Shown: positions 39,662 to 63,716, numbered from the stretch's first letter. The stretch: 64,000 bases of DNA from an uncultured Desulfobacterales bacterium (GCA_964647905.1 CAZYJR010000006.1:70935-134934), one strand, 5' to 3'. Notes: generated by a model from the sequence alone, not told the origin. Numbers and translations are program-made.

Positions 39662-39738
39662 GGGCCGTTAGCTCAGCCAGGTAGAGCAGCGGACTTTTAA
39701 TCCGTTGGCCACAGGTTCGATTCCTGTACGGCCCACCA
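39662..39738 (+). tRNA. tRNA-Lys (anticodon UUU), CCA encoded
   Basis: Acceptor GGGCCGT/ACGGCCC, D stem GCTC/GAGC, anticodon loop CTTTTAA, T arm ACAGG-TTCGATT-CCTGT, discriminator A, then CCA. Confidence 0.9.
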
Positions 39739-39845
39739 GAGAGCAAACGGGCCTCGACAGACGCCCGAGCGGCACTTGACATATATGGACTTTGACGGGA
39801 TGACCTCCCGGCGATGGCCATAACCGCAGTCCTTCCTACAACTGC

Positions 39846-39923
39846 GTCCCCATCGTCTAGCCAGGTCCAGGACACCGGCCTTTCACGCCGGCGACAGGGG
39901 TTCAAATCCCCTTGGGGACGCCA
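39846..39923 (+). tRNA. tRNA-Glu (anticodon UUC), CCA encoded
   Basis: GTCCCCATCGTCTAGCCAGGTCCAGGACACCGGCCTTTCACGCCGGCGACAGGGGTTCAAATCCCCTTGGGGACGCCA is near-colinear with the classic bacterial tRNA-Glu. Anticodon loop is CTTTCAC. Confidence 0.9.
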
Positions 39924-40381: not shown

Positions 40382-40801
40382 ATGTTTGATGAAGACCTGG
40401 ATCAAGAAGAGACGAGCTTTGCCTGTGACAGACTGAGCGACGACGTCCTCCAGGAGGAATACAACGAATGGCTCGAGCAGGCATCAGACGAGGAGATCGA
40501 GAAGATGGCCAATAAGGCGGCCGAGGCCCTGATCAGGCGCTTTCCCGAGCTCGGCGGCAATGATGATCGATCTCCGGGGGGTGTATCCGACGAGGATCCT
40601 CCTCCCTATCCTTCCGGAAACTCGGATACGGACGAGGAGCATCAGGAAGAGGACCCGCCGGCCGAGGCCCTTGATGACGACGAGTGGATTGCCTCGATCA
40701 CGGGGCATTTCAGTCTGACCGACACCTTGGCGAGCGATCTCCGCCAGGCCTTCCCCGGCCTCTCCGAGGAGGATCTGAAGAAGTATCTGGACGGCCTATA
40801 A
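40382..40801 (+). CDS. highly acidic hypothetical protein (139 aa)
   Basis: ATG preceded by AAGGAGAAGGAAAA. By hand count 42 of 139 residues are Asp/Glu versus 9 Lys/Arg. No recognisable catalytic motif. Confidence 0.5.
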   Translation: MFDEDLDQEETSFACDRLSDDVLQEEYNEWLEQASDEEIEKMANKAAEALIRRFPELGGNDDRSPGGVSDEDPPPYPSGNSDTDEEHQEEDPPAEALDDDEWIASITGHFSLTDTLASDLRQAFPGLSEEDLKKYLDGL

Positions 40802-41474: not shown

Positions 41475-41891
41475 CTACCCAGAATGACCAGGAAAGCTGG
41501 ATTCAAGTGCTTCTTTCGCTGCTTGCACTAAAAATGAGGATCGGGACATCCCGTGTTTTTTTGCCGCGGCATCGATCTGCTTCAGAGTCATTTCAGGCAG
41601 CGTAATATTCACACGTACCGTCCTAGGCTTTGCACCAGGGACCGAAACTACTAGATAGGCGGTCGCATCGGCATAATCTGAATCCGCCATGATATCTTCC
41701 AAGCGGGAGGGGGTTGGCAATTGCTCTCCATCCTCCAGCAAACCTTGAATATGAAGGGACAAGGCATCTTGCGCCATATCCTTGGCTTCGTCAATGTCCT
41801 TCCCGGCCGTGATGCACCCCTGAAAGTCGGGAAATGAGACACCGAAATCGGTCGCGTCCTCTTTGTGGACGACTGCAATAAAATTCGCCAT
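41475..41891 (-). CDS. hicB: HicB-family antitoxin (HicB N-domain plus C-terminal ribbon-helix-helix)
   Basis: MANFIAVVHKEDATDFGVSFPDFQGCITAGKDIDEA..ALSLHI.. is typical of HicB. C-terminal VRVNITLPEMTLKQIDAAAKKHGMSRSSFL is RHH-like. ATG 41891 is preceded by GAGGT. Confidence 0.8.
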   Translation of the reverse strand: MANFIAVVHKEDATDFGVSFPDFQGCITAGKDIDEAKDMAQDALSLHIQGLLEDGEQLPTPSRLEDIMADSDYADATAYLVVSVPGAKPRTVRVNITLPEMTLKQIDAAAKKHGMSRSSFLVQAAKEALESSFPGHSG

Positions 41892-41899
41892 GGCATACC

Positions 41900-42088
41900 T
41901 CAATTGAACTCGATCCCAGATTGGCGTTCTATGCTCTTGAGGGTGCCAACCGGGATATCCTTTTTCGGATGCGGGACCGTGACCCGCCCTTTTCGTTGAG
42001 CGTGGCTGAATTGAAGGTGGCTACCGGACTTAGCCACTTCTTGCCATCCATGCATTTTGAGCGCTTTGATGATCGTCCGGCTGTCCAT
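41900..42088 (-). CDS. hicA: HicA-family mRNA interferase toxin
   Basis: 62 aa. IKALKMHGWQEVAKSGSHLQFSH..GRVTVPHPKKDIPVGTLKSIERQSG matches the HicA/YcfA pattern. It lies directly upstream of hicB. Confidence 0.85.
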   Translation of the reverse strand: MDSRTIIKALKMHGWQEVAKSGSHLQFSHAQRKGRVTVPHPKKDIPVGTLKSIERQSGIEFN

Positions 42089-42306: not shown

Positions 42307-42837
42307 TTCCAAAGGCAATACCATATACTAACCAAGATTATCAGCAACGGCCAACCGGGAGCCGCCCGAGCGGCCGTTGACGCAGCCATCGAACTCGTCA
42401 CCCCCCACGAGGGCCGGACCCCCAAAGGGTACCCCGCCGAAGCCGGGCCCCTGGTGGAGCGATACAACCTGACTGAGGTGCCCACGAAGGACTATGCGGA
42501 TTGCACAAGGCAGAACATCCTCGATTCCGATGGTACCGTCATCTACTCGCACGGCGAACTCGGGGGCCAATCAAAGCTCACTGCGGACATGGCCACAGAA
42601 CTCAGGCGGCCCTTCCTTCATATCGACCTCCAGAAGGAGCTGATTGCCGGAGCCGCAAAGGTGCTCTCTGTGTGGACAGAACTCCACAAGATAGCGGTTC
42701 TCAATGTCACGGGACCCACGGCCAGCGAGGACCCTCAGATATACGAGAAGGTGAAAACCGTGATGGAGGTCGCCCTGGTGCTCTTAAGGGGGCAGAAGAG
42801 GTGGCAAGCAATGGAGTCAGGCCATCCTACTCACTGA
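42307..42837 (+). pseudogene. SLOG-fold YpsA-like ('putative molybdenum carrier') gene lacking a canonical start codon
   Basis: The frame is open from 42307. KIISNGQPGAARAAVDAAIELVTPHEGRTPKGYPAEAGPLVERYNLTEVPTKDY..DSDGTVIYS parallels the KIISGGQTGADRAALDAA..GGWCPKGR..Y.L.E family pattern. There is no ATG/GTG/TTG before the internal GTG 42454, and the GGQTGAD loop is degenerate (NGQPGAA). Confidence 0.45.
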
Positions 42838-42996: not shown

Positions 42997-45900
42997 ATGT
43001 CTCTTCCCACGATATTTGATATATGCATGCCGCGACAGGACGTCCTCGACCATTCCTTCACAGAGGCTGACTTTGCCGCTGACTTGGCGGCAGTGCTGCG
43101 AGAAGACGGCCCCGAGGAGTATCGCGACCCGGCCAAGTTTTTCGCCCGCACCTATCCTACCGAGGGCCTCAAGACCTTGCTTCGCAGTGTCTGCTCCCGG
43201 CTGACCGGAGGTGGAGAGAGTATAGCGCCGATCTTCCGCCTGGACACAAACTACGGAGGCGGCAAGACTCACGCCTTGATCGCCCTTGCCCATGCTGCCA
43301 AAGGCATGCAGGGGGTGTCTAACGCCTCAGAGTTCATCGATCCGGCTAAGCTGCCTTCGGGGCCCGTCCGGGTGGCGTCCTTTGACGGCGAGAATGCCGA
43401 CCCTTACAACGGCAATCCGCTTGAGGGGGACCTAAGGGCATACACTCCTTGGGGAGAGATTGCCTATGCGCTTGCCGGCCGAGAGGGCTATGAGAGGGTC
43501 AGGAGGAGCGATGAGGCCAGGGGTGCTCCCGGGGCGGGGACCATCAAGGAGCTTTTCGGGAGCGAGCCCACACTGATTCTTTTGGATGAGCTCTCCGTCT
43601 ACCTGCGGAAGCTCAAGTCGAGCGACATCAGGAGGGATCAGCTCACCGCCTTCCTCACAAGCCTCTTCAAGGCGGTGGAAAGCTTTCCCAGGGCCGCGGT
43701 GGTTTACACCTTGGCCATCGGCAAGGGCGGGGTGGCCACGGATGCCTACCGCCAGGAGAACATGGAGATTGCCGACGCAATGGCCGAGGCGGAAAGCGTA
43801 TCGGCCCGAAAGGCCACCCTGCTTGACCCCACCGAGGAAGACGAGACGGTGAGAGTGCTCCAGCGCCGTCTTTTCGAGCAAGTGGATCAGACCAGAGTGG
43901 ATCAGGTGGTGGAGGCCTTCAAGCGGATATGGGGCCACAACAAGCCCCTGCTGCCCTCTGTCGGGGCGACCGATACGCGCATGGAGGACATGAAAGACGG
44001 CTTCCCCTTCCACCCGGAGCTCATCGCCACCCTCAGGAACAAGACCGCGACCTTGAGCAATTTCCAGCGCGTCCGAGGGATGTTGCGGATCCTGGGGCGC
44101 ACGGTGGGCCGCCTGTGGGCTAAGCGCCCGGGCAATACCTTTGCCATTCATCTTCACCACATTGATCCCGGGTTCGAGCCTATCCGCCAGGAGATCGTAA
44201 CCCGCCTGGGGCAGAGCCATCTCCTGCCTGCCCTGCGGGCCGACGTGGCAGCTGCCGAGGGTGAGCAGCCCTCCCTGGCCGAGCAGCTTGATGCTGACCA
44301 CTACGGCGGCCTTATGCCTTATGCCTCCATGGCGGCCCGCACCATCTTCTTTCACACGCTGGCTTTCAATGACCAGCTCAAGGGGGCCTCGCGAGAGGAG
44401 ATTCGATATTCCATAATCGGCCCGGAGCGCGACATCAGCTTCATTGATGATGCCACAACCCGCTTCATACAGCAGTCCGCTTATCTTGACGACCGGCCCA
44501 ATGTCCCTTTGCGCTTCCAGGCCGAGGCCAACCTGACGCAGATCATCAAGCGCCAGGAAGACAACGTGGACAAGACCGAGGTCCGGGCCCAGCTAAACGA
44601 CCGCATCCGGGATATCTACTGCGGCAAGGTGATCACCTTCAACCCTGTTTCCTTCCCCGGCGGCCCCTATGACGTACCCGATGACACCTCCCAGGGGCGT
44701 CCTTCCCTGGTGGTGATCGGGTATGACGCAGCAGACATATCGGGCCAGACCCTGGAGATCCCAGAGCTGGTGGAGCGCATCTACCGTCACCACGGCTCGG
44801 CCGGGGACATACGGATCAACCGCAACAACCTGGTCTTCCTCCTTGCCGACAGTGACCGAAAGGAACAAATGCGCCGGATGATGCGCCGCCACCTGGCCCT
44901 ACAAGACCTTCTGCGACGAGAGCGCCTGGAGGAACTGGCCGAGCACCAGCAGAACAAGATGCGCGAGTTGGCGAAGCGCTCTGAGCAGGAGCTGGCCCTG
45001 GCCATCCAACAGTGTTACCGCCACGTCCTCTACCCCTCCAAGAACCGGGTGGAGGGTGCAAGGGTGGATCTTGCCCATGCGGCCATAGAGGTCCACACAG
45101 CCTCTCAGACCCCGGGCGACGGGCAGAAGCATGTGATCCAGGTGCTGCGCGACAGTAAGAAGCTGCGCCTGCCGGAAGACGACCCAGACAGCCCGAGCTA
45201 CGTGCGAGACAAGACCCCCTTGAAGAAGGGAGGCCTCACCACCGCCGGGCTCAGGCGGGAGTTTTCCCGCGACCCGGCCTTGCCCATGCTGGTGGGAGAT
45301 GATGTCTTTTTGCGGGGATTGCGCCAGGGAATAGAACAGGGCACATACGTCTACCAGAGCGGCGATCTGATCTGGGCACAGGGGATGCCTCCTGTAGAGA
45401 TGAAGATTGACGAGAACTCCATGGTCTACACCTCTGAGTACTCCAGGGAGCATGGTATTTGGCCGAAGCCCGAGCCTCCTAAGCCCCCGCCCCCCTTTCC
45501 GGAGCCCGGTCCAGCTCCTGGTGCTGAGGAAAAGCCTGGTGTGAAACCCCCGGAGGCAGCCGAGGGAGGCGGTGGGCCTTTTCCCCCTCCTCAGCCCCCG
45601 CCAGTGGGCGATGTCTCGGCCGAAGGGCCGCTCAAGGAAGCCCTGTCCAGCCTGTGGGAAAAGGCGCGCAGCTCCAATATGGGGAACGTGGGGCTCCTCT
45701 CATTGCAGCTCTATGATCACTCGGACGGCTTCAAAGTCATGGTCCTGGCGAGCGGCATCCCCGGTGCCGCCAAGGTGGCCTCCATCAGGGGAGCGTATGA
45801 GACCACTGCCGGGGGTGAGCTCTCACTCGAGTTCAAAGGACCTGTTGACGATGCCCACCCCATAAAGGACTTCCTGGAGCCCCAGCTCAGGGCCGCCAAG

Positions 45901-46050
45901 GAGAAGGATTTCAAGGTGACCATCTCTATCGAATTCAACGACGGCCTGGACCTCTCCGGCGATGAGCCCGAGAAGCTCACAGATCGCTTGGGTAAATTCG
46001 GGAGTGGGGCGGCCTATGTCTCGGCCTCGGCCAAGGGAGGCGGGGCATGA
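42997..46050 (+). CDS. DUF499-type P-loop ATPase (BrxC/PglY-like), 1017 aa
   Basis: AAGGAGGGG SD. Walker A NYGGGKTH (43249-43272) and Walker B LILLDE (43573-43590). Long helical body, a Pro-rich linker (PKPEPPKPPPPFPEPGPAPG..PPPQPPP), and a C-terminal domain of about 150 aa. Confidence 0.85.
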   Translation: MSLPTIFDICMPRQDVLDHSFTEADFAADLAAVLREDGPEEYRDPAKFFARTYPTEGLKTLLRSVCSRLTGGGESIAPIFRLDTNYGGGKTHALIALAHAAKGMQGVSNASEFIDPAKLPSGPVRVASFDGENADPYNGNPLEGDLRAYTPWGEIAYALAGREGYERVRRSDEARGAPGAGTIKELFGSEPTLILLDELSVYLRKLKSSDIRRDQLTAFLTSLFKAVESFPRAAVVYTLAIGKGGVATDAYRQENMEIADAMAEAESVSARKATLLDPTEEDETVRVLQRRLFEQVDQTRVDQVVEAFKRIWGHNKPLLPSVGATDTRMEDMKDGFPFHPELIATLRNKTATLSNFQRVRGMLRILGRTVGRLWAKRPGNTFAIHLHHIDPGFEPIRQEIVTRLGQSHLLPALRADVAAAEGEQPSLAEQLDADHYGGLMPYASMAARTIFFHTLAFNDQLKGASREEIRYSIIGPERDISFIDDATTRFIQQSAYLDDRPNVPLRFQAEANLTQIIKRQEDNVDKTEVRAQLNDRIRDIYCGKVITFNPVSFPGGPYDVPDDTSQGRPSLVVIGYDAADISGQTLEIPELVERIYRHHGSAGDIRINRNNLVFLLADSDRKEQMRRMMRRHLALQDLLRRERLEELAEHQQNKMRELAKRSEQELALAIQQCYRHVLYPSKNRVEGARVDLAHAAIEVHTASQTPGDGQKHVIQVLRDSKKLRLPEDDPDSPSYVRDKTPLKKGGLTTAGLRREFSRDPALPMLVGDDVFLRGLRQGIEQGTYVYQSGDLIWAQGMPPVEMKIDENSMVYTSEYSREHGIWPKPEPPKPPPPFPEPGPAPGAEEKPGVKPPEAAEGGGGPFPPPQPPPVGDVSAEGPLKEALSSLWEKARSSNMGNVGLLSLQLYDHSDGFKVMVLASGIPGAAKVASIRGAYETTAGGELSLEFKGPVDDAHPIKDFLEPQLRAAKEKDFKVTISIEFNDGLDLSGDEPEKLTDRLGKFGSGAAYVSASAKGGGA

Positions 46051-46526
46051 GCCTGGTGGTAAAGCGGGAGCCTGGAACCGCTCCTGTCTACGAGCTCAGG
46101 GTGCGCCGGAACCCCTCGGTCGGTCTGGGCTTGGAGATATGGCAGCGACCCTCGCCCAACTCCCCTCAACTGAAAGAGCCTCTTTATATAGCGGGCCTCA
46201 AGGGGCGCAACCTTTCTCTCGTGGAGCATCGCGTCCTCAGGCAGCTCTCCAAGGCCGGCGTTGACCTGGGCGGGTTGCGGCTTAACCATCGCCGCACCTA
46301 TCCCCTGGATGAAGATCTGGCCCTTTCCCTGGGGCTGATGTTTCGTGCCCTGGCCCCCATGCGGAGCCGCGACAACATGCGCATGGTGGCCGAGGGTATA
46401 GAGGCCATGGGCCGCGAGGAGGCCGCATACTGGCTGGGGATGGCCATGCATCGCAAGTACCCGCGCCGAGTACTGATGGCCCTTAGGTTCCTGCTGATCG
46501 ACCCCAAACAGAAGAAACGGACTTGA
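46047..46526 (+). CDS. small basic protein of unknown function, translationally coupled within the operon
   Basis: 159 aa. Its ATG overlaps the upstream stop (ATGA), and its stop lies 1 nt before the next ATG. Arg/Lys-rich, with no catalytic motif recognised. Confidence 0.7.
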   Translation: MSLVVKREPGTAPVYELRVRRNPSVGLGLEIWQRPSPNSPQLKEPLYIAGLKGRNLSLVEHRVLRQLSKAGVDLGGLRLNHRRTYPLDEDLALSLGLMFRALAPMRSRDNMRMVAEGIEAMGREEAAYWLGMAMHRKYPRRVLMALRFLLIDPKQKKRT

Positions 46527-46527
46527 G

Positions 46528-49473
46528 ATGACCGAGCGCCTTATAGAGAAGTGGCTGCCCATTGCTGAGTTGGGTGAAGAGAGCATACGGGAGCGTCGCT
46601 CGATGACAGCCCTCCCACCTACTTACTACCTCCACGTATGGTGGGCGCGACGGCCCCTGGTGGCCTCGCGCGCGGCGGTCTTGGCCTCGGTGCTGCCGGC
46701 CGATGCCGACCAGGACAGGTTTATGCACGCTCTGGGGATTCATGGGGATCCGATCAAGACCAAGCGACAGCTTGAACACGCCAAGAGGACTGGAGAAAAC
46801 CTTGGCCTCAACCCGTATGGTTACAAACGTGCCTTCCAATACCATCCAGACAAGGATGAGAAGGAGTGGATCAAGTACGAGACAGGGCGACTAGGTCTCC
46901 AGGACCTCCTAGTGCTTGATCCCACTGCCGGTGGGGGCAGTATTCCTTTCGAATCAACGCGCTTAGGAATCGCCAGCTTGGCCAACGACCTCAACCCGGT
47001 GGCCGGGCTTGTTTTAAGGGCAACTATCGAAGCGCCCATGCGCCATGGCCTTGATGTGCTCTACCAGTTCAATCGCCTTTCTAAGCGCTTCTTAGAATTG
47101 GCTGAGCCTAGATTCCGGGGTGTATTTCCGCCAGAGCCCGAAGATGCCCAAGTGCTTGGCTACCTCTGGAGCCGCACAATAACCTGTCCTTACTGCGACG
47201 GCCTTATCCCGCTTTCTCCCAACTGGCGTCTTGCTCCGGACGGCACCGGCGTGCGCTTGCACCCGAGCACCGGTCCTGGCGAGCGGCGTTGCTCCTTCGA
47301 GATCGTCAAGAAGGCCGAAGAGCAGTCGGAGGGGACCGTCACCGGCGGCAATGCCACATGCCCCTTCCCCGATTGCGGCCGTGTGGTGGACGGCTCCGAG
47401 GTCAAGCGGCAAGCCCAGGCCGGGGGTATGGGCGAGCAGCTCTATGCCGTCGTCTACAAGAAGCGGGTGGAGACCCGTACCAAGAACGGAAAGGTCCGCG
47501 AGAAGTGGGTGCGGGGCTACCGGGCCCCTCGGGAGGAGGACGACAACTCAGATGCGATTAGGAAGGTCCTGGCCCAGAAGCTGCCCGAGTGGGAGGCCCT
47601 GGATATGGTGCCAACTGAGACATACAACTATATGTACTCTGACCGCTCCAAGGTGTATGGAGTGGATTTTTGGCGCGACCTCTTTTCCCCCCGCCAGCTC
47701 CTGGGCCACTGCACCAGTGTGGAGGTCTACCGCGAACTCCTGGAGAAGGCCACGGCCGAGGCCGGGGGCGAGCTACCAGAAGCGACCAAGGCCGCCTTAG
47801 GGTATTTGGCTTTGGGGTTGGATAAGCTCAGAGACTACAACTCCCGTATGACTCGCTGGCACAGCTCCCGACAGGTGATGGTGAACACTTTCGACAGGCA
47901 TGATTTCTCATTCAAGTGGTCTTACGCCGAGATGGCTCCCCTCATAGTAGGCTTGGGCTATGACTGGGCCCTGGAGCAGACGGCCAAGTGTATAGCCGAG
48001 CTGGTGGAACTGGCCCGTCCTGATATAGACGTAAAGAAGGCCCTCAAGCACCCCGACCAGGTCTCCATGCCCAACGGCAACTTCTCACCCCCTCACGTCA
48101 CCGTGACGTGCAAGTCAGCCGACGGCCTGGACCACCTTGGTGATGCCTCGGTGGACGTGGTGGTCATGGACCCCCCTTACTACGACAACGTGATGTACGC
48201 CGAGCTGTCCGATTTTTTCTACGTATGGCTCAAGCGCACCGCCGGATATGTTTACCCCGAGTTCTTCCGGAGGCCGCTGACCGACAAGGAACAGGAGGCC
48301 GTGGCCAACCCGGCCCACTTCAGGGGGCAAAAGGGGGCCAAGATGCTCGCTTACAAGGAGTACCGCGACCGCATGGCCGCGATCTTCTCCGAGAGCAGGC
48401 GGGTGCTCAAGCCCGCCGGTGTCATGACCCTTATGTTCACCCACAAGGCGACCGGCGCATGGGACGCCCTTACCACCGGACTCATGGAGGCGGGCTTTGT
48501 GATAACCGCCAGTTGGCCTGTAAACACAGAGGCTGAAGGGTCCATGCACATCAAGGACAAGTCTGCTGCAAACAGCACGGTCTTCCTGGTCTGCCGCCCG
48601 CGCCCGGAGCGGGCCGATGACGTCGATGTCCCCTACTGGGAAGACCTGGAGCCCAGAGTGAGAACAGCCGTACGCGGGCGCATCAAGGACTTTCAGGGGG
48701 CCGGCATCCGGGGTGTGGATCTATATCTCTCGGCATTCGGTCCCGCTCTCCAGGAGTTCTCTCGGCACTGGCCCGTCAAGAGGGGTACTCCAAGGGAGCG
48801 TCCTGCCGATCTTCAGCGCAAGAGACAGCTTGAGTTTCTCGAAGAGGAGTTCGACCCCTATGTCGCCACCCCGGAGGACGCCCTGGACGCAGCCCGGCGT
48901 GAGGTCAAACGCTGGCGGCTCGAGCAGTTGACCAACGTCCAGCGCCGGGGAGAGCTTGATCCCCTTACGGAGTGGTTTGTGCTGGCCTGGGACGCCTTCA
49001 AGGCCCCTCAGTTCCCATATGATGAAGCCCTGCGCCTGGCCCGGGCCGTAGGGGTGGATATGGACACGCAGGTCATAAAGACCCTGGCAGGGAAGAAGAC
49101 GAGCTCTGTAATTATGTGGGACGCCTCGACCCGTGCGGCAAAGGGCGCCCTGGGGCCGGCAGACGGCAGCCGCTCCATGCTGGACGCCCTTCACCACGCG
49201 GCTCATATGGCCCGGACCCGCACCTTGAATGCAGCCAAAGATCTGATCGACCAGACCGGATTGGCGGCCGAGCCCCGCTTTCTCACGGCGCTGGAGGCGG
49301 TTCTGGAGGTGCTGCCGCCTTCTCGGGCCTATACAGGCCTGGACCCTGCCAGGGCCGCCGAGCCGGCCGCGAGCGACTTCGAGGCCTTGGAGAGCCTGCG
49401 CCGCCTGGCCTTCAGTGAGGAGGTGGATGAGCCACAGCAGCTCTCCTTCTTGAGGGAAGAAGGGAGAGCCTAA
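46528..49473 (+). CDS. DUF1156-type DNA methyltransferase (DPPY; N6-adenine or N4-cytosine class) with zinc ribbons
   Basis: 981 aa. N-terminus WLPIAELGEESIRER..TYYLHVWWARRP (DUF1156 signature). Motif I VLDPTAGGGSIPFES. Cys pairs CPYCDG and CPFPDCG. Motif IV VVVMDPPYY (DPPY at 48169-48180). Confidence 0.9.
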   Translation: MTERLIEKWLPIAELGEESIRERRSMTALPPTYYLHVWWARRPLVASRAAVLASVLPADADQDRFMHALGIHGDPIKTKRQLEHAKRTGENLGLNPYGYKRAFQYHPDKDEKEWIKYETGRLGLQDLLVLDPTAGGGSIPFESTRLGIASLANDLNPVAGLVLRATIEAPMRHGLDVLYQFNRLSKRFLELAEPRFRGVFPPEPEDAQVLGYLWSRTITCPYCDGLIPLSPNWRLAPDGTGVRLHPSTGPGERRCSFEIVKKAEEQSEGTVTGGNATCPFPDCGRVVDGSEVKRQAQAGGMGEQLYAVVYKKRVETRTKNGKVREKWVRGYRAPREEDDNSDAIRKVLAQKLPEWEALDMVPTETYNYMYSDRSKVYGVDFWRDLFSPRQLLGHCTSVEVYRELLEKATAEAGGELPEATKAALGYLALGLDKLRDYNSRMTRWHSSRQVMVNTFDRHDFSFKWSYAEMAPLIVGLGYDWALEQTAKCIAELVELARPDIDVKKALKHPDQVSMPNGNFSPPHVTVTCKSADGLDHLGDASVDVVVMDPPYYDNVMYAELSDFFYVWLKRTAGYVYPEFFRRPLTDKEQEAVANPAHFRGQKGAKMLAYKEYRDRMAAIFSESRRVLKPAGVMTLMFTHKATGAWDALTTGLMEAGFVITASWPVNTEAEGSMHIKDKSAANSTVFLVCRPRPERADDVDVPYWEDLEPRVRTAVRGRIKDFQGAGIRGVDLYLSAFGPALQEFSRHWPVKRGTPRERPADLQRKRQLEFLEEEFDPYVATPEDALDAARREVKRWRLEQLTNVQRRGELDPLTEWFVLAWDAFKAPQFPYDEALRLARAVGVDMDTQVIKTLAGKKTSSVIMWDASTRAAKGALGPADGSRSMLDALHHAAHMARTRTLNAAKDLIDQTGLAAEPRFLTALEAVLEVLPPSRAYTGLDPARAAEPAASDFEALESLRRLAFSEEVDEPQQLSFLREEGRA

Positions 49474-49489
49474 TGATTTCCGGGGAGGA

Positions 49490-52400
49490 GTGATCGTGGC
49501 CTGCTTGGCCGACCGGAAATGGGAGACCTACTACGCACCTGGTTATGCCGACCTGGTCCGTGACTTCTACGAGCCCGCCCTCGCCTGCGCTGTTCGCTAT
49601 GACCGCTCCACGGGCTACTTCAACGCCCCGGCTCTGGCCTTGGCCATGCGCGGGCTGGAGGGCCTCATTGCCAACCAGGGCCATATGCGGCTGCTGGTGG
49701 GCTGCACCCTGGATCAGGCCGAGGTCGAGGCGATAGAGAAGGGCTATACCCTGAGAGATACGGTGGAAGCCCACCTGCTTGAGATACCCCTGGAGGCGCC
49801 GGACCAGGCCGCCTACGAGGCCCTGGAGCTCCTTGCCTGGATGGTCGCCAAGGGATACCTGGAGGTCAAGGTGGCGGTGCCCTGCGACTCGTCCCGGCGG
49901 CCTTTGCCTTCGGTGGGGATATTCCACGCAAAGGCCGGGATCATTGAAGACAAGGTGGGCGAGAGGCTGGTCTTCAGCGGCAGCATAAACGAGACCGTCT
50001 CCGGGTGGCTGCACAATTACGAGGCCTTTCATGTTTTCACCAGCTGGGAGGGCGGCGAGAAGCATGTAGATGCAGAAGAGCGCGAGTTTCAGGCCCTGTG
50101 GGCGGATAAATCCAAGCATGTTGTGGTTATTGACGTTCCGGCGGCCAAGCGGGACCAGCTGCTCCAGTTCATGCCCAAGGACGACAAGCCCGCCCGCATC
50201 AAGCGGTTGGAGGAGTCTGCCAAGGACAATATGCTTTCGTCTCCTCCGGAGGAAGAGCAGCCTGATCCAGAGCCTCCAGTCTCTGAGGCAAATCCCCGAC
50301 GGGTGGTGTGGTCGTTCCTGCGCATTGCTCCCCGATTGCCCGAGGGCGGTGAGCGCGTGGGAGAGGCTACTTCGGCCGTCACTCCCTGGCCCCACCAGGT
50401 GCGAGCCTTTGAGCGGATGTACCGGAAATGGCCCCCGCGGCTCCTTATAGCCGATGAGGTGGGTCTAGGAAAAACCATCCAGGCGGGCATGCTCCTCAGG
50501 CAGGCCTGGCTGGCCGGGCGGGCAAAGCGGGTGCTTATCCTGGCTCCCAAGGCCCTTCTGGGCCAGTGGCAGATAGAGCTCAGGGAAAAATTCAATCTCA
50601 ACTGGCCGATCTACGACGGCAACCGCCTGACCTGGTGCCAGGCCCCCGGCCTTCGTGGTCCCATCTCCCGCACTGTAACCAGCGAAGCCTGGCACCATGA
50701 GCCCTTTGTCATCACCTCGAGTCAGTTGATGCGCCGACGAGACCGCGCCCAAGAGCTTCTCCATGGAGCCGAGCCCTGGGACCTGGTGGCGCTGGATGAG
50801 GCCCACCACGCCCGCAGACGCGCGGGAGGCCTGGGCCAGGACGACCGGCCCAACCAGCTCCTGCGCCTGATGCGGGAGCTGCGGGACTGTACCCAAGGGC
50901 TGATCCTCCTCACCGCCACCCCCATGCAGGTAAGCCCGGTGGAGGTCTGGGATCTCCTCGACCTCTTGGGACTCCCCCCGGCATGGGAAAAGGAGGCCTT
51001 CCTTAAGTATTTCGAGACAGCGGCCAAGCCCAGCCCTTCTCATGAAGAGATGCGGTACCTTGCAGGTCTCTTTCGTTCTGTTGAGGCCTCCTTCGGTGCG
51101 GTCGCGCCCGAGGAGGCAAAGCTCGTTACCGGAATCGAGAGCAACCTCAAGGTGAAAAAGCTGATCGGGGCGCTCCATGACGAGTCCTCCATACCAATAA
51201 AACAACTGAGCAGCGAAGAGCGAAAGGCCGTCTTGAGGCTTCTCAAGGCCAACACTCCTGTCCGGAGGCTCATCTCCCGCCATACCCGAAGGCTCCTGCG
51301 CCGCTATTATGAGGCCGGCAAGATATCGACCCCTATCCCGGCCCGGGAGGTGGCTGACCGCTTTGTATCGCTCTCCGAACAGGAGGCCCAGGTCTATGCG
51401 GCTATGGAGGATTACATCAGCAGCACCTATAACAACGCCTCCCAGGAACGCCGCACTGCGGTGGGCTTTGTCATGACCGTTTACCGCCGCCGCCTGGCCA
51501 GCAGCTTTTACTCCCTGGCCAACACGCTCAATAAGCGTCTTGCGGCCCTCAAGCCCGGTCCCGCTTCCCTAATGGACCCTGCCCGGATCGAGGAAGATCT
51601 CTCCGATGACGAGGTCCAGCCCGAGATCATGGACGTCGAGACAGCTCAGGAACTGGAGGCCGAGGCCCTCACCGCTGAGGAGATAGGCGATCTCCAGGGC
51701 CTTCTGGAATCGGTGCGCCGCCTGCCCACCGATACCAAGGCCACCGCCCTCCTGGAGGCCGTCAACGAGGTGCGCGCAGACGGCTACAGCCAGGTCATGG
51801 TCTTCACCCAGTACACAGACACCATGGACTTCCTGCGGGAGTTCCTGGTGAAGCATTCTTCCTTGCGGGTCATGTGTTTCTCCGGGAGGGGCGGGGAGGT
51901 ACTTGGCAGCGACAGACGCTGGAATCCGGTCACCCGCGACGAGATCAAGCGGCGCTTCCAGGAGAGGTGGGCCGATATCCTGGTCTGTACCGATGCAGCC
52001 GCCGAGGGCCTGAACTTCCAGTTCTGCGGCGCACTGGTCAACTACGACATGCCCTGGAACCCCATGAAGGTGGAGCAACGCATCGGCCGAATCGACCGTA
52101 TGGGCCAGAAGCACGACAAGGTCAGGATCGTGAATCTGCACTATGAAAACACGGTGGAGACCGATGTCTACCTGGCCCTTCGCGAGCGCATCAACTTGTT
52201 CGAGACCTTTGTGGGCGCGCTCCAGCCCATCCTGAGCCGGCTCCCAAGGGCCATAAGAGACGTGGCATTTACCGGCCGCGACGAGAGGGAACGCGAGAAA
52301 GCCGCCCTGGTGGACGACTTGGCCAGAGAGGCGAAGGAGGCCGAGCAGGCGAGCTTCGACATAGACGCGGTTACCGAGGGCGAGGTGGAGGAGCGCCCCC

Positions 52401-52693
52401 GGCCCCCCGCACTCTACGGCCTTACCGAGTTGGGCCGCATACTGACCCGGCCGGACTTGATGCCGCCCGGATGCGAAGTCAGCCCTGCCGGTACCAAGGA
52501 TCACGCCTATCTCGCCCCGGGCATGGACGCACCGGTACGGGTCACAACAGCCGCCGACTTCTACGAGCAGCACGCAGACAGCGTGGAGCTGTGGTCCCCC
52601 GGATCCCCCCTGTTTCCCGACGTGGCTGAAGAAGGCACAGACGAGAATGTCAATCGGGAGAGATTTCTCATGGTGTTAGGCCAAGATTCTTGA
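49490..52693 (+). CDS. PLD-family nuclease domain fused to an SNF2-family helicase
   Basis: 1067 aa. HKD motif FHAKAGIIEDKVGERLVFSGSINET (His codon at 49925). SNF2 motif I ADEVGLGKT (50453-), motif II LDEAHHARR (50795-), and motif VI QRIGRIDRMGQ. The start may be GTG 49490 or GTG 49496 (GGAGGA upstream). Confidence 0.9.
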   Translation: MIVACLADRKWETYYAPGYADLVRDFYEPALACAVRYDRSTGYFNAPALALAMRGLEGLIANQGHMRLLVGCTLDQAEVEAIEKGYTLRDTVEAHLLEIPLEAPDQAAYEALELLAWMVAKGYLEVKVAVPCDSSRRPLPSVGIFHAKAGIIEDKVGERLVFSGSINETVSGWLHNYEAFHVFTSWEGGEKHVDAEEREFQALWADKSKHVVVIDVPAAKRDQLLQFMPKDDKPARIKRLEESAKDNMLSSPPEEEQPDPEPPVSEANPRRVVWSFLRIAPRLPEGGERVGEATSAVTPWPHQVRAFERMYRKWPPRLLIADEVGLGKTIQAGMLLRQAWLAGRAKRVLILAPKALLGQWQIELREKFNLNWPIYDGNRLTWCQAPGLRGPISRTVTSEAWHHEPFVITSSQLMRRRDRAQELLHGAEPWDLVALDEAHHARRRAGGLGQDDRPNQLLRLMRELRDCTQGLILLTATPMQVSPVEVWDLLDLLGLPPAWEKEAFLKYFETAAKPSPSHEEMRYLAGLFRSVEASFGAVAPEEAKLVTGIESNLKVKKLIGALHDESSIPIKQLSSEERKAVLRLLKANTPVRRLISRHTRRLLRRYYEAGKISTPIPAREVADRFVSLSEQEAQVYAAMEDYISSTYNNASQERRTAVGFVMTVYRRRLASSFYSLANTLNKRLAALKPGPASLMDPARIEEDLSDDEVQPEIMDVETAQELEAEALTAEEIGDLQGLLESVRRLPTDTKATALLEAVNEVRADGYSQVMVFTQYTDTMDFLREFLVKHSSLRVMCFSGRGGEVLGSDRRWNPVTRDEIKRRFQERWADILVCTDAAAEGLNFQFCGALVNYDMPWNPMKVEQRIGRIDRMGQKHDKVRIVNLHYENTVETDVYLALRERINLFETFVGALQPILSRLPRAIRDVAFTGRDEREREKAALVDDLAREAKEAEQASFDIDAVTEGEVEERPRPPALYGLTELGRILTRPDLMPPGCEVSPAGTKDHAYLAPGMDAPVRVTTAADFYEQHADSVELWSPGSPLFPDVAEEGTDENVNRERFLMVLGQDS

Positions 52694-52888: not shown

Positions 52889-53614
52889 GTGAATACTAAG
52901 CGAGACCAGATCGAGGTGAGCGGCATCCAGGTGGAGGTAGTCAGGAAGCGCATCAAGAACCTCTACGTGCGCATCTACCCGCCGGAGGGAAGAGTGCGTG
53001 CAACCGTGCCTGTTGGCCTCAGTGATGAAGAAATCCGCTCGGCAATCGTGTCCCGCTCGGAGTGGATCCTGAGGCACCGGGAGAAGTTGAGCAAGGAGCC
53101 CCAACCCGGATACACGATGGATACGGGCGAGATCCACCATTTCCAAGGGCGTGGATATAGGCTTCAGGTGATTGAGCATCTCGGGCCGCCATCAGTCCGC
53201 ATAGTCGATAACACGACCCTCCAGTTGATCGTGCGCCCTGGAACTGGGAGGGGCAAGCGGGAGGCGGTACTTCAGCAGTGGTATCGCCAGATGCTCCGGA
53301 AACGGATCCGGGAATTGATCCCCCAATGGCAACCTGTGATCGGGGTCGAAGTCGCCGATTGGGGCATCAAGAAGATGAAGACGCTCTGGGGCAGCTGTAA
53401 TACCAGGGCGAGAAGGGTTTGGGTGAATCTGGAGCTGGCCAAGAAGCCGCCGGAGTGCCTCGAATACATCCTGGTCCATGAGATGCTCCACTTGCTCGAG
53501 CGTCACCACAACGAGCGATTCCGAGAACTCATGAACAAGCTCATGCCGCAGTGGCGGCTCCATCGTGACAAGCTGAACCAGACGCCCCTATCGCATGAGG
53601 ACTGGAGCTACTAG
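52889..53614 (+). CDS. DUF45/YgjP-like zinc metallopeptidase (M48-like, HExxH)
   Basis: 241 aa, GTG start. WGSCN motif and HEMLH (53477-53491), as in YgjP-type proteins that often accompany type I R-M and helicase loci. Confidence 0.8.
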   Translation: MNTKRDQIEVSGIQVEVVRKRIKNLYVRIYPPEGRVRATVPVGLSDEEIRSAIVSRSEWILRHREKLSKEPQPGYTMDTGEIHHFQGRGYRLQVIEHLGPPSVRIVDNTTLQLIVRPGTGRGKREAVLQQWYRQMLRKRIRELIPQWQPVIGVEVADWGIKKMKTLWGSCNTRARRVWVNLELAKKPPECLEYILVHEMLHLLERHHNERFRELMNKLMPQWRLHRDKLNQTPLSHEDWSY

Positions 53615-61246: not shown

Positions 61247-61518
61247 CGATCTTCCTCCTGTAATACTCCAAAATGGTTCAATAAATTCCAATCAAAGACC
61301 CCAAAACAAATAGTCACCTCCTTTCTGTCCTAAAATATGCTATTAAATGCCCTGATAAGTACCCATCAGGACGCATTAAAGTATCCTATAGATTTCAGTA
61401 AAATGTGTCAAGTAGTTCTAAATCAGCATAATTTTGTGTAGCATATTGGTATTTTCCAACTTATTTGGAACTGTAAAAACGATGGTTTAAGCTGGCCTCG
61501 GATGTGTAACGAAATTGA

Positions 61519-61547
61519 TTGACATTCGTCTGACGCAAAGGTATGTT
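61519..61547 (+). promoter_or_regulatory. sigma-70-like promoter of the recombinase gene
   Basis: TTGACA (61519-61524), a 17-nt spacer, then TATGTT (61542-61547), within an AT-rich intergenic region. Confidence 0.4.
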
Positions 61548-61601
61548 TTTAGCCGAATTTCGGGTTTTCGCTTAACAACACCTGCAAGGAGAGCCCATCC
61601 C

Positions 61602-62216
61602 GTGAAAACCGTATCCTACCTTCGAGTCAGCACGGACGCCCAGGACACGGCCAATAACAAGGCTGCGGTGCTCGATTTCGCTAATACGAAGGACTTCGGC
61701 AAGGTCGATTTCGTAGAGGAGAAGGTCTCCGGGAAGACGCCCTGGAGGGAGCGCAAGATCAAGGAGGTTCTTGACGGCCTCGGAGAGGGGGATAGGCTCA
61801 TCGTGCCCGAGCTATCCCGGCTGGGGAGATCCACCCTGGAGGTCCTGGAGATCCTCAAGGAGGCCAAGGACAAGGGCGTCGATGTCTACAGCGTCAAGGA
61901 GGGTCTCTCCCTCAATGGGGACGGCATGCAGGCCAAGATCATGACCACCATGCTCGCCCTATTTGCAGAGCTCGAGAGGGACTTCATCTCGCAACGGACC
62001 AAGGAGGCGCTGAAGGCGAGGAAGGCCGCCGGCGTCAGGCTGGGCCGGCCCAAGGGCCCGGGCAAGAGCAAGCTGGACGAGCACAGGGAGGAGATCGTGG
62101 CGCTCCTCAAGAACGGTGCCACAAAGGCCTTCGTTGCCAAGCGCTATGGGACCTCCAAGGTGAACCTCTATAACTGGATCAAGAAGAACGGGATTGATGC
62201 GAGCCCGGAGCCGTAG
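61602..62216 (+). CDS. serine recombinase (resolvase/invertase family) with C-terminal HTH
   Basis: GTG 61602 preceded by AAGGAGAG. VSYLRVSTDAQ catalytic Ser motif, LIVPELSRLGRS, and C-terminal HTH AKRYGTSKVNLYNWIKK. Confidence 0.85.
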   Translation: MKTVSYLRVSTDAQDTANNKAAVLDFANTKDFGKVDFVEEKVSGKTPWRERKIKEVLDGLGEGDRLIVPELSRLGRSTLEVLEILKEAKDKGVDVYSVKEGLSLNGDGMQAKIMTTMLALFAELERDFISQRTKEALKARKAAGVRLGRPKGPGKSKLDEHREEIVALLKNGATKAFVAKRYGTSKVNLYNWIKKNGIDASPEP

Positions 62217-62271: not shown

Positions 62272-63330
62272 TCAGGTGGATGCCGCGAGAGTATCCGGTG
62301 CTCCCAGATGGAACTTTACCTCGTAGCGGCGCAGCTCGACATTTTCGAGGGTGCTGAGTGCATACCGGAGTGCGTCATCCGCCTTTCGGCATATGATCAT
62401 GCCGTGGACCTGATCCCCGGCTTCAGCCAGGTGCCTCTTCACCCATCCCATGTATCGCAGGAGCTGGCCGACGGTCTGGTCGCTGCTTTGATTGCGCTTG
62501 AGCTCCACCACTAGCCAGCGCGGCTCTCGGCGGTGTTTGGCAAGGAGATCTATGCGCCCCACGTCACATGGGTACTCATATCCTGCCTCTTCGTCCCCCG
62601 GCTCCTGATATATAGCCCAGTCCCGGCCGAGCTCAATATGCTGCCAGTTGTCTCTGAGGAACTCGTGAAGGTGGCGCTCCAGCCCGAACCGCTGTTCGGA
62701 TTCCGCCCACACGTCGCCGGGGATCGGGTCACTGTCGCCAGGGGGCAACGAATCCCTCTGGTCCAAGTACCACCACAGTGCATCCAGGGTCCAGAGGTCG
62801 ATCTTGAGGGCGTCCCGAAGCTGAAGCAGGATCTGGTTTACCTTGACATACCGGCTCCCGAACGACTCTCCCCGGTCGAAGTGCGGCCAAATGCCGAGCT
62901 GTTTCATGTTCGCCTCGGAGCGGTTATTCCACACTCCGTAACGCTCAGGATGTATGACCAGGAGGATACCGCTTGCCACGTTCTTTCCCATGCCAGGGAC
63001 CATTGCTGTACCCTGATCCAGGCGGTCAGCCACCGACTGGGTCTCGTCAGCTAGCATTGATAGGGCCTGTCGCAGGTTGTCCATGTCAGCACACATGCGG
63101 GGGCCTTGACGTTGGAGTCCGGTCCAGTGGTGGTTGTTTTCAAAGAGCAGGAAGCTGCGGAACTCTTCGGCTGTAATCTCTGGTATGTGTTCGGGGGAAA
63201 AGACCGGCTGGTACCTGGCCAGGACAGCATCTCGTGGTTCAACAACCTCTTTGTAGATTGCCGAGCTCTTAAGACCGGCAAGGGCCTCACGTAGCTCCCC
63301 TATCACATCCGGCGTAACAGTCTCAGCCAT
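62272..63330 (-). CDS. NucS/DUF91-like PD-(D/E)xK nuclease domain protein with an N-terminal helical domain
   Basis: Start set at ATG 63330 (GGAGGAGA SD). C-terminal ..GRIDLLAKHRREPRWLVVELKRNQSSDQTVGQLLRYMGW.. is a D..E.K nuclease core, as in NucS-like/Mrr-like enzymes. Confidence 0.65.
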   Translation of the reverse strand: MAETVTPDVIGELREALAGLKSSAIYKEVVEPRDAVLARYQPVFSPEHIPEITAEEFRSFLLFENNHHWTGLQRQGPRMCADMDNLRQALSMLADETQSVADRLDQGTAMVPGMGKNVASGILLVIHPERYGVWNNRSEANMKQLGIWPHFDRGESFGSRYVKVNQILLQLRDALKIDLWTLDALWWYLDQRDSLPPGDSDPIPGDVWAESEQRFGLERHLHEFLRDNWQHIELGRDWAIYQEPGDEEAGYEYPCDVGRIDLLAKHRREPRWLVVELKRNQSSDQTVGQLLRYMGWVKRHLAEAGDQVHGMIICRKADDALRYALSTLENVELRRYEVKFHLGAPDTLAAST

Positions 63331-63716
63331 TTCGCTGTCTCCTCCAGCGGGTACGAACAACATGCCCCTGCTTGATGTACACCTCATGGTCCCCGGTATC
63401 CGGTGCCGAATCCCGCTGTGCTCCTTCGCCCCTTATGTTGATGTTGATCCCTTTCCCGGCAACAGGCATAGGTAGGCCTCCTGAGATGGGCAAGCCTTCG
63501 TGACGGTAGTCGGGCGGGATTATCGAATAATCCGAAGGTAAAGTCAATTTTGCTGCTGCAAAAGGCGAGATAACACACACAGGAGTGGTCTAGGCGTCTG
63601 TCTGCAGCCCCTTATGGGGACCTCGCTCCCAGCCCCGGGCGAACCTCAAGAACACCATCTGAAGGCCCCGGGGGGATATCTGAGGTCTTCCTTCTTTCAA
63701 CGGCTCTCTGCCGTTG

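Follow-up and report, generated by a model that had tools for sequence, protein, structure and literature searches.

The stretch analysed here, called the window below, comprises 64,000 nucleotides of DNA from an uncultured Desulfobacterales bacterium (GCA_964647905.1, CAZYJR010000006.1:70935-134934). Positions 42997 to 52693 hold an operon of four genes, encoding in order a BrxC-like DUF499 ATPase, a small DUF7680 protein, a DUF1156-type methyltransferase and an HKD (PLD-family) nuclease fused to a Swi2/Snf2 helicase (Table 1). A first-pass annotation made from the sequence alone had described four co-directional, tightly packed genes, and the list of open reading frames (ORFs) bears this out. 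The ATGA overlap of genes 1 and 2 is read directly from the sequence at 46047-46050 and means that gene 2 is translationally coupled to gene 1. One nucleotide, base 46527, separates the TGA that ends gene 2 (46524-46526) from the ATG of gene 3 (46528). The 16-nucleotide gap between genes 3 and 4 was likewise recovered: the TAA at 49471-49473 is followed by GGGGAGGA and the GTG at 49490. Because a GGAGGA Shine-Dalgarno sequence immediately adjoins this GTG (49484-49498), while an in-frame GTG at 49496 has the better spacing of 6 nucleotides, the latter is the likelier start of gene 4. The true start is thus probably GTG 49496, making the gap after gene 3 22 nucleotides. A strong Shine-Dalgarno sequence also lies upstream of gene 1. 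All motifs quoted in the first-pass annotation were present in the translations, their coordinates were verified, and its domain assignments all hold in Pfam profile searches. Each of the four genes is genuine and intact, and judged by the profile scores the domain matches far exceed chance.

Gene 1 matches Pfam DUF499 with an E-value of 3.6e-37 (128 bits, cut-off 23). Its best match in PADLOC-DB is HmaC with 326 bits, the generic DUF499 model scoring 144 bits, and the NCBIfam model DUF499_antiphage gives 208 bits for a cut-off of 1200. The product contains a proline-rich linker at about amino acids 820-870, followed by a C-terminal domain of about 140 amino acids; the N-terminal HEPN domain present in many HmaC proteins is absent from it. 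Gene 3 matches Pfam DUF1156 (E-value 1.2e-14, 54.6 bits, cut-off 24), and a sub-threshold match to N6_N4_Mtase (19.7 bits, cut-off 26.7) begins at DPPY. HmaB is its best PADLOC-DB match with 249 bits, followed by DUF1156_MTase (132) and PglXI (62), and NCBIfam DUF1156_antiphage scores 202 bits (cut-off 1000). An insert bearing zinc ribbons lies between motifs I and IV. The DPPY motif is typical of amino-methyltransferases acting on N6 of adenine, and of some acting on N4 of cytosine; on its motifs the gene 3 product is probably an N6-adenine methyltransferase. Gene 4 matches the Pfam families SNF2-rel_dom (E-value 1.3e-20, 74 bits), Helicase_C (E-value 3.8e-18, 66 bits) and ResIII. In PADLOC-DB it scores best with PLD_Helicase (278 bits), followed by BrxHI (263), PbeA (243), DrmD (233), HmaA (194) and BrxHII (190), and in NCBIfam it obtains 380 bits with phospholipD_antiphage (cut-off 1100) and 286 with DrmD (cut-off 610). 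The profile search detected no Pfam domain beyond Helicase_C, the fold of amino acids 960-1067 not being compared. Among solved structures RapA comes nearest to the helicase core, and none was found that is related in sequence to the gene 1 or gene 3 product.

Gene 2, which the first-pass annotation had left unnamed, matches Pfam DUF7680 with an E-value of 6.9e-45. This is the only family that it matches, even at E-values up to 10, and neither PADLOC-DB nor NCBIfam gave a match. The AlphaFold2 model of the product, made with a 22-sequence alignment, is confident (predicted local distance difference test, pLDDT, 86.8; predicted template modelling score, pTM, 0.82) and gives an alpha+beta protein with the order b1-b2-b3-a1-b4-a2-a3-a4-a5 and a short a6. 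Foldseek searches with the model against PDB and BFVD returned nothing significant. DUF7680 is always small and standalone among the homologues and has an identity of 62-76% across phyla; its C-terminal half is nearly invariant (LAPMRSRDNMR...EEAAYWLGMAMHRKxPRRVL). The family comprises at least 2354 clusters at 90% identity and 545 at 50% identity.

DUF7680 genes were surveyed with one genome per species, giving 504 genes across 185,579 species genomes, and the neighbourhoods of the 80 best loci were analysed. The gene order proved to be conserved across genomes, in these loci and in other relatives. A homologue of gene 1 lies directly upstream of DUF7680 in 78 of the 80 loci, and the other two meet the end of the contig within 150 nucleotides. 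Where at least 3.2 kb of upstream sequence was available, the end of gene 1 was at most 400 nucleotides from the DUF7680 gene in 67 of 74 loci. A gene 3 homologue follows downstream in 64/80; among the 16 loci without one, eight are truncated contigs and eight contain 10 kb or more of other DNA. Gene 4 homologues come after gene 3 in 45 loci and are adjacent to it or overlap with it in 33 of these. The same four genes were found on plasmids of Sinorhizobium, Rhodococcus and haloarchaea. The hosts include Alpha-, Beta- and Gammaproteobacteria, Desulfobacterota, Acidobacteriota, Latescibacterota, Binatia, Entotheonella and Gemmatimonadota, and the operon occurs also on cyanobacterial, rhizobial, actinobacterial and haloarchaeal plasmids. 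The distribution is patchy across phyla, with identities of 55-76%. Only four matches were obtained in the 2.9 million viral contigs of IMG/VR.

The catalytic positions are conserved throughout the clade. The Walker A lysine and the Walker B aspartate and glutamate of the ATPase (K90 and D197/E198) are invariant in 66/66 proteins. In the methylases, D131, P132, T133 and G135-G137 of motif I and all residues of DPPY are invariant (44/44), with A134 kept in 40 and S138 in 41 of the 44. All 38 gene 4 proteins of the clade have H146, K148, N167, GLGKT and DEAH. Conservation along the proteins is otherwise flat save for a few short patches and the proline-rich linker of gene 1, which is the only strongly variable stretch of that product within the clade. 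No hypervariable C-terminal domain was seen in the DUF7680-clade ATPases, and no hypervariable target-recognition region in the methylases.

Of the 64 loci with both genes 2 and 3, only eight resemble the window in having the two side by side. The gap between them has a median of 2.1 kb and exceeds 9 kb in the largest case, and the inserted ORFs are mostly co-oriented and form recurrent cassettes, among them Septu, Menshen, Schlafen-like and STAND-TPR ones, which share this orientation (Table 1). Examples of embedded known or candidate defence cassettes (Septu PtuA/PtuB, Menshen NsnABC and Schlafen AlbA_2/HATPase_c_4 proteins) are found at L023:11012-13032, L040:10447-13745, L025:8639-10366 and L004:10493-12109. 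A further, co-oriented cassette of three genes, present for example at L018:10509-12909 and also in L016, L017 and about eight other loci, encodes products of about 236, 200 and 362 amino acids. The first two are without Pfam or PADLOC match; the third, with a metallo-beta-lactamase (MBL) fold, weakly matches LmuA/RTasMBL models. The cassette is a candidate for a new embedded defence module. In Hma, a helicase-methylase-ATPase system, 62.7% of systems carry embedded genes, of which Septu is the commonest. The embedding between genes 2 and 3 repeats this pattern and is good circumstantial evidence for a defence role. The 28.8 kb plasmid pMIC7113.06 of Allocoleopsis franciscana (L088, 985-4907) carries an HKD-Snf2 helicase with 36% identity to gene 4, which directly follows a HEPN AbiU2 gene and lies about 16 kb from a DUF499 gene; the plasmid seems to carry the system in a rearranged or split form.

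The first-pass annotation had stated that DUF499/DUF1156 neighbourhoods were flagged in earlier surveys, which is correct. It had also implied that the operon is an untyped, novel system, and this is not supported: PADLOC-DB, NCBIfam and three papers already describe DUF499/DUF1156/Snf2 operons. NCBIfam has an 'anti-phage-associated' quartet of DUF499, DUF3780, DUF1156 and phospholipase D-like models. Payne et al. 2021 (PMC8565338) named the Hma operon and found 1,638 instances in 26 phyla. Liu et al. 2024 (PMC11232893) found that HmaA, whose Snf2 helicase bears a PD-(D/E)XK nickase at its C-terminus, is sufficient by itself to protect Escherichia coli against T4, and saw no restriction-modification-like effect of HmaB. 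Rakesh and Krishnan (Nucleic Acids Research 2026, PMC12839542) united these as DUF499-centred 'BREX-Related' (BR) systems of three types. Type-1 is Hma, with TUDOR, Snf2 and restriction-endonuclease domains in the helicase. Type-2 has a DUF499 protein, a standalone DUF3780 protein, a DUF1156 methylase and an HKD-Snf2 helicase with HKD in place of the N-terminal TUDOR; it was found in 1120 taxa, 98% of them with DUF3780. Type-3 contains PglZ and an inactive STAND protein in addition (PMC12839542). The part of the expectation of novelty that survives is the DUF7680 branch, which is apparently unnamed. No mention of DUF7680 was found in the literature searched, and neither DUF7680 nor the accessions tried occur in the text and supplements of PMC12839542, its full taxon tables not being covered.

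The window operon combines a DUF499 ATPase with intact Walker A and B motifs, a DUF1156 methylase and an Snf2 helicase, the hallmarks of BR/Hma, and very probably belongs to this DUF499-centred superfamily. It is Type-2-like because the order of ATPase, small standalone gene, methylase and helicase and the N-terminal HKD on the helicase instead of TUDOR match Type-2. The DUF1156 methylase N-terminus and the tight packing are shared as well, and the small proteins have the same predicted order of secondary structure, while that of Type-2 is DUF3780 and that of the window DUF7680. The annotated Type-2 loci of Acinetobacter baumannii and Bacillus cereus plasmids consist of DUF499, DUF3780, DUF1156 and PLD-helicase genes; annotated Type-1 loci (Thermus, Arthrobacter) consist of helicase, methylase and ATPase genes. 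The three core families and Septu-type embedded cassettes are common to Hma/Type-1 and the DUF7680 operons. Identity with Hma/Type-1 was rejected on gene order and nuclease type: its order is helicase, methylase, ATPase, whereas the ATPase comes first here, and its helicase has TUDOR and a C-terminal PD-(D/E)XK domain instead of the N-terminal HKD. Hma/Type-1 also has no obligate small gene, unlike the locus studied here.

Typing as BREX or DISARM was rejected as well. A Pfam scan was made of 30 of the larger ORFs in the window, ten in 1-34 kb (at least 373 amino acids), four in 34-40 kb and 16 flanking the operon in 40-43 kb and 53.7-63.4 kb. Consistent with the first-pass annotation, none of these is PglZ, BrxL, DrmA or DrmB (DUF1998), and none of them is BrxA, BrxB/F or iSTAND. 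The four operon genes gave no PglZ match in Pfam, PADLOC-DB or NCBIfam. Since no PglZ, BrxL, DrmA or DrmB was found, and with DrmD below its cut-off, the locus is not typable as canonical BREX or DISARM. Type-3 BREX (BrxC, PglXI, BrxHII, PglZ, BrxA and BrxF) resembles it in the BrxC-like ATPase, the PglXI-like N6 methylase and the BrxHII-like Snf2 helicase. It differs, as does Type-3 BR, in PglZ, BrxA, BrxB/F and iSTAND, which were not found here, and in that the nuclease is here fused to the helicase. DISARM (DrmA, DrmB, the PLD nuclease DrmC, the Snf2 protein DrmD and DrmMI/MII) shares a DrmD-related Snf2 helicase, a PLD-family nuclease and a methylase; DrmA and DrmB were not found in the ORFs scanned, the PLD and Snf2 parts here belong to a single protein, and the DUF499 ATPase has no equivalent in DISARM.

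The ATPases, methylases and helicases of the window, Sinorhizobium, Rhodococcus, Halobacterium, Type-1 and Type-2 were compared by all-against-all BLASTP. The DUF7680-associated proteins score 260-1230 bits among themselves, 83-240 bits (20-28% identity) with canonical Type-2 and 150-300 bits with Type-1. The ATPase and methylase of the window branch are closer to Type-1/Hma than to Type-2. By these scores the DUF7680 operons behave as a coherent separate branch. The presence of DUF3780 in 98% of Type-2, together with a list of Type-1 nucleases that does not include HKD, suggests that the published BR classification does not contain this branch.

The gene slot shared by DUF7680 and DUF3780 and the same predicted order of elements suggest that the two are counterparts. 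The DUF3780 model has its secondary-structure elements in the same order as DUF7680 at nearly equal residue positions, and this order fits the published description of the DUF3780 fold, an antiparallel sheet of four strands with five helices behind it (PMC12839542). DUF7680 is the positional counterpart of DUF3780 and, on these models, probably the structural one; occupying the same operon slot, it is probably the functional counterpart too. That the DUF7680 operons form a fourth, so far unnamed DUF499-centred BR lineage with the three enzymes as a clade of their own is put forward tentatively. It is equally tentative that the clade spans bacteria and haloarchaea with an obligate small subunit that took the place of DUF3780 or has diverged so far that the relationship is no longer recognisable. 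The same degree of caution applies to a small subunit at least as conserved as the enzymes and a DUF7680-methylase junction serving as a preferred docking site for other defence cassettes.

For its function, the interpretation held to be fairly probable is an intact four-gene anti-phage or anti-plasmid module with a restriction-modification-like mechanism. A defence role is supported by the position in a tRNA-adjacent island of lower G+C beside HicAB, the patchy spread across phyla and the embedded defence cassettes, and also by the protection of E. coli from T4 by the Type-1 helicase-nuclease. In the proposed mechanism the DUF1156 DPPY methyltransferase would N6-methylate adenines in a host motif, recognised through the zinc-ribbon-containing insert between motifs I and IV, and thereby mark self. 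The DUF499 ATPase, in complex with the DUF7680 subunit, would assemble on DNA as a scanning or licensing scaffold analogous to BrxC, and the Snf2 motor of gene 4 would translocate on unmodified incoming DNA. An active site of the HKD/PLD nucleases requires two HKD motifs, and a protein with a single one acts as a dimer (Nuc/BfiI-type). Because the gene 4 product bears only one HKD motif, it would pair with a second copy; the two motifs would form a PLD-type active site by which the DNA would be cut or nicked. The first-pass annotation had proposed the same division of roles, with the methylase as self-marker, the PLD-Snf2 protein as effector and the ATPase as sensor or scaffold, and so does PMC12839542.

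Several observations weigh against this account of the locus. With regard to its placement, the small gene is not DUF3780, and the NCBIfam Type-2 equivalogs NF042962/3/4 scored at only 17-35% of their cut-offs. Sequence homology between DUF7680 and DUF3780 was rejected, as hhalign gave a probability of 0.08-0.12% with three settings and with a more diverse DUF7680 profile. The DUF3780 model is also of low confidence (pLDDT 57.7). A shared 'EExx[WY]WL' motif at helix 4 of the two families, spotted by eye, was dropped because no alignment supports it. With regard to the mechanism, the PLDc_2 match of gene 4 (amino acids 138-204) scores 27.0 bits, exactly at the Pfam cut-off, and the methylase insert is not hypervariable in the clade, whereas many restriction-modification enzymes have hypervariable domains for target recognition. 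No experimental test of the DUF7680 branch or of Type-2 was found in the literature searched. In the only experiment on the family, the Type-1 helicase-nuclease alone sufficed and overexpression of the methylase left T4 sensitivity unchanged (PMC11232893). Methylation-based discrimination of self and non-self is therefore unproven.

The last of these results hints at the main alternative, considered unlikely, in which defence is independent of methylation. The ATPase and DUF7680 would sense a phage cue in a STAND-like manner and license the HKD-Snf2 effector directly. The methylase would not be the self-marker; it might have a regulatory function, serve as an anti-restriction decoy or confer specificity as a DNA-binding subunit. 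In addition to the protection by HmaA alone, phage grown on HmaB-expressing cells were not protected, and about 15-20% of HmaA loci are without HmaB or HmaC (PMC11232893); the ATPase core is moreover of the ORC/STAND type (PMC12839542). The invariance of DPPY and the AdoMet motif core in 44/44 clade methylases speaks for selection on methylase catalysis, however, and the methylase is kept in 64/80 loci despite the frequent insertions beside it. T4 DNA is hypermodified, and the T4 experiment is for this reason a poor test of restriction-modification logic.

It is improbable that the operon is not primarily a defence system but a module for mobile-element maintenance, addiction or DNA repair, for example a restriction-modification-like post-segregational killing cassette stabilising the island or plasmid. 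Such a role would agree with its presence on plasmids and islands beside transposases, integrases and relaxases and with its rarity on viral contigs (the four IMG/VR matches). A restriction-modification-like module may serve both addiction and defence, though, and the co-oriented embedding of Septu and Menshen is the pattern of bona fide defence systems. A BREX-like exclusion without cleavage, in which replication or injection of unmodified DNA is blocked and HKD is a DNA-binding or structural module, agrees with the PLDc_2 score at threshold and with the evolutionary link of the family to Type-3 BREX through the ATPase, methylase and helicase, but is very improbable given that the catalytic-triad equivalents H146, K148 and N167 are invariant in 38/38 and that the nickase activity of the Type-1 fused nuclease is essential for defence (PMC11232893).

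The restriction-modification-like interpretation thus concerns a system that is not categorically new. The DUF499/DUF1156/Snf2 family is found in thousands of genomes and is partly covered by annotation models; new here is the widespread, apparently unnamed DUF7680 branch, and should this already be included in the published Type-2 counts, the finding reduces to another member of a known system. With DUF7680 as a marker, PADLOC, DefenseFinder and PGAP would be able to call about 500 species-level loci that lie below the Type-2 cut-offs. The junction of genes 2 and 3 in relatives is a source of candidate new defence cassettes such as the three-gene MBL-fold cassette. The window locus itself is a clean experimental construct, because it has no genes embedded between DUF7680 and the methylase (8/64) and its catalytic motifs are intact. 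It is suited to three questions: self-marking by the methylase, the cue of the BrxC-like ATPase and the role of the invariant small subunit.

Table 1. Features of the operon, of the gap between genes 2 and 3 in related loci, and of the surrounding window (positions in the window)
Feature	Position	Strand or orientation	Description
Gene 1	42997-46050	+	1017 amino acids, DUF499 (BrxC-like STAND/ORC-type AAA+) ATPase
Walker A GGGKT	43255-43269	+	gene 1
Walker B LILLDE	43573-43590	+	gene 1
Gene 2	46047-46526	+	159 amino acids, DUF7680 small protein
Gene 3	46528-49473	+	981 amino acids, DUF1156-type DPPY methyltransferase
WWARRP	46639-46656	+	gene 3, N-terminal signature
Motif I DPTAGGGS	46918-46941	+	gene 3
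CPYC	47185-47196	+	gene 3, first Cys pair of insert
CPFPDC	47359-47376	+	gene 3, second Cys pair of insert
Motif IV DPPY	48169-48180	+	gene 3
Gene 4	49490-52693	+	1067 amino acids, HKD (PLD-family) nuclease fused to Swi2/Snf2 helicase
FHAKAG	49922-49939	+	gene 4, part of HKD motif
GSINET	49979-49996	+	gene 4, part of HKD motif
GLGKT	50462-50476	+	gene 4, Snf2 motif
DEAH	50795-50806	+	gene 4, Snf2 motif
QRIGRIDRMGQ	52076-52108	+	gene 4, Snf2 motif
Septu PtuA/PtuB	gap between genes 2 and 3 of relatives	co-oriented	7-10 loci
Menshen NsnABC	gap between genes 2 and 3 of relatives	co-oriented	7-8 loci
Schlafen AlbA_2/HATPase_c_4 protein	gap between genes 2 and 3 of relatives		including Desulfovibrio sulfodismutans
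STAND-TPR protein	gap between genes 2 and 3 of relatives	co-oriented	
Three-gene cassette ending in MBL-fold protein	gap between genes 2 and 3 of relatives		uncharacterised, 10-11/64 loci
tRNA-Lys and tRNA-Glu	39662-39923		
SAM (S-box) riboswitch RF00162	40049-40147	+	60.5 bits, gathering score 44.4
ORF after riboswitch	40382-40801	+	139 amino acids, very acidic
HicA toxin/HicB antitoxin	41475-42088	-	intact pair
cpYpsA gene	42454-42837	+	circularly permuted YpsA SLOG, 'molybdenum carrier-like'
YgjP-like metallopeptidase gene	52889-53614	+	M48/SprT-like
Serine resolvase	61515-62216	+	
YhcG/NucS-like protein	62272-63387	-	PD-(D/E)XK

The first 39.6 kb of the window consist of housekeeping genes, including those for transketolase, PGI, SecA, UvrC, ArgJ, HisD and lipoate ligase, and are followed by the two tRNA genes. 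The G+C content is about 0.64-0.66 at 34-38 kb, 0.61 at 38-40 kb and then 0.55-0.62 beyond about 40 kb. The tRNA genes, the lower G+C content and HicA/HicB support the tRNA-adjacent island with a toxin-antitoxin system that the first-pass annotation had described. Its integrase remnants were not recovered: no ORF tested had a Pfam integrase match, and the only recombinase found is the serine resolvase. No direct repeat derived from the 3' end of the tRNA was found to bound the island. The island also contains ORFs that could not be annotated, an S-adenosylmethionine (SAM)-dependent methyltransferase and a helix-turn-helix protein.

The HicA/HicB pair lies directly upstream of the operon. The cpYpsA gene ends 160 nucleotides before gene 1, and a similarly annotated gene is located upstream of a helicase gene on a Nitrosococcus plasmid. 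The YgjP-like metallopeptidase gene begins 195 nucleotides beyond gene 4; an M48 metallopeptidase is found near a Type-1 locus of a Thermus plasmid. None of the three was kept alongside the system in the 80 loci, and cpYpsA, HicAB and the peptidase were rejected as parts of it.

At the island's edge, about 125 nucleotides beyond tRNA-Glu, lies the SAM riboswitch. No methionine or SAM gene follows downstream, and the acidic ORF after it had no Pfam match. Insertion of the island may have split the riboswitch from its gene. The serine resolvase and the YhcG/NucS-like gene are located near the far end of the low-G+C region, and the two may mark the other end of a mobile island.

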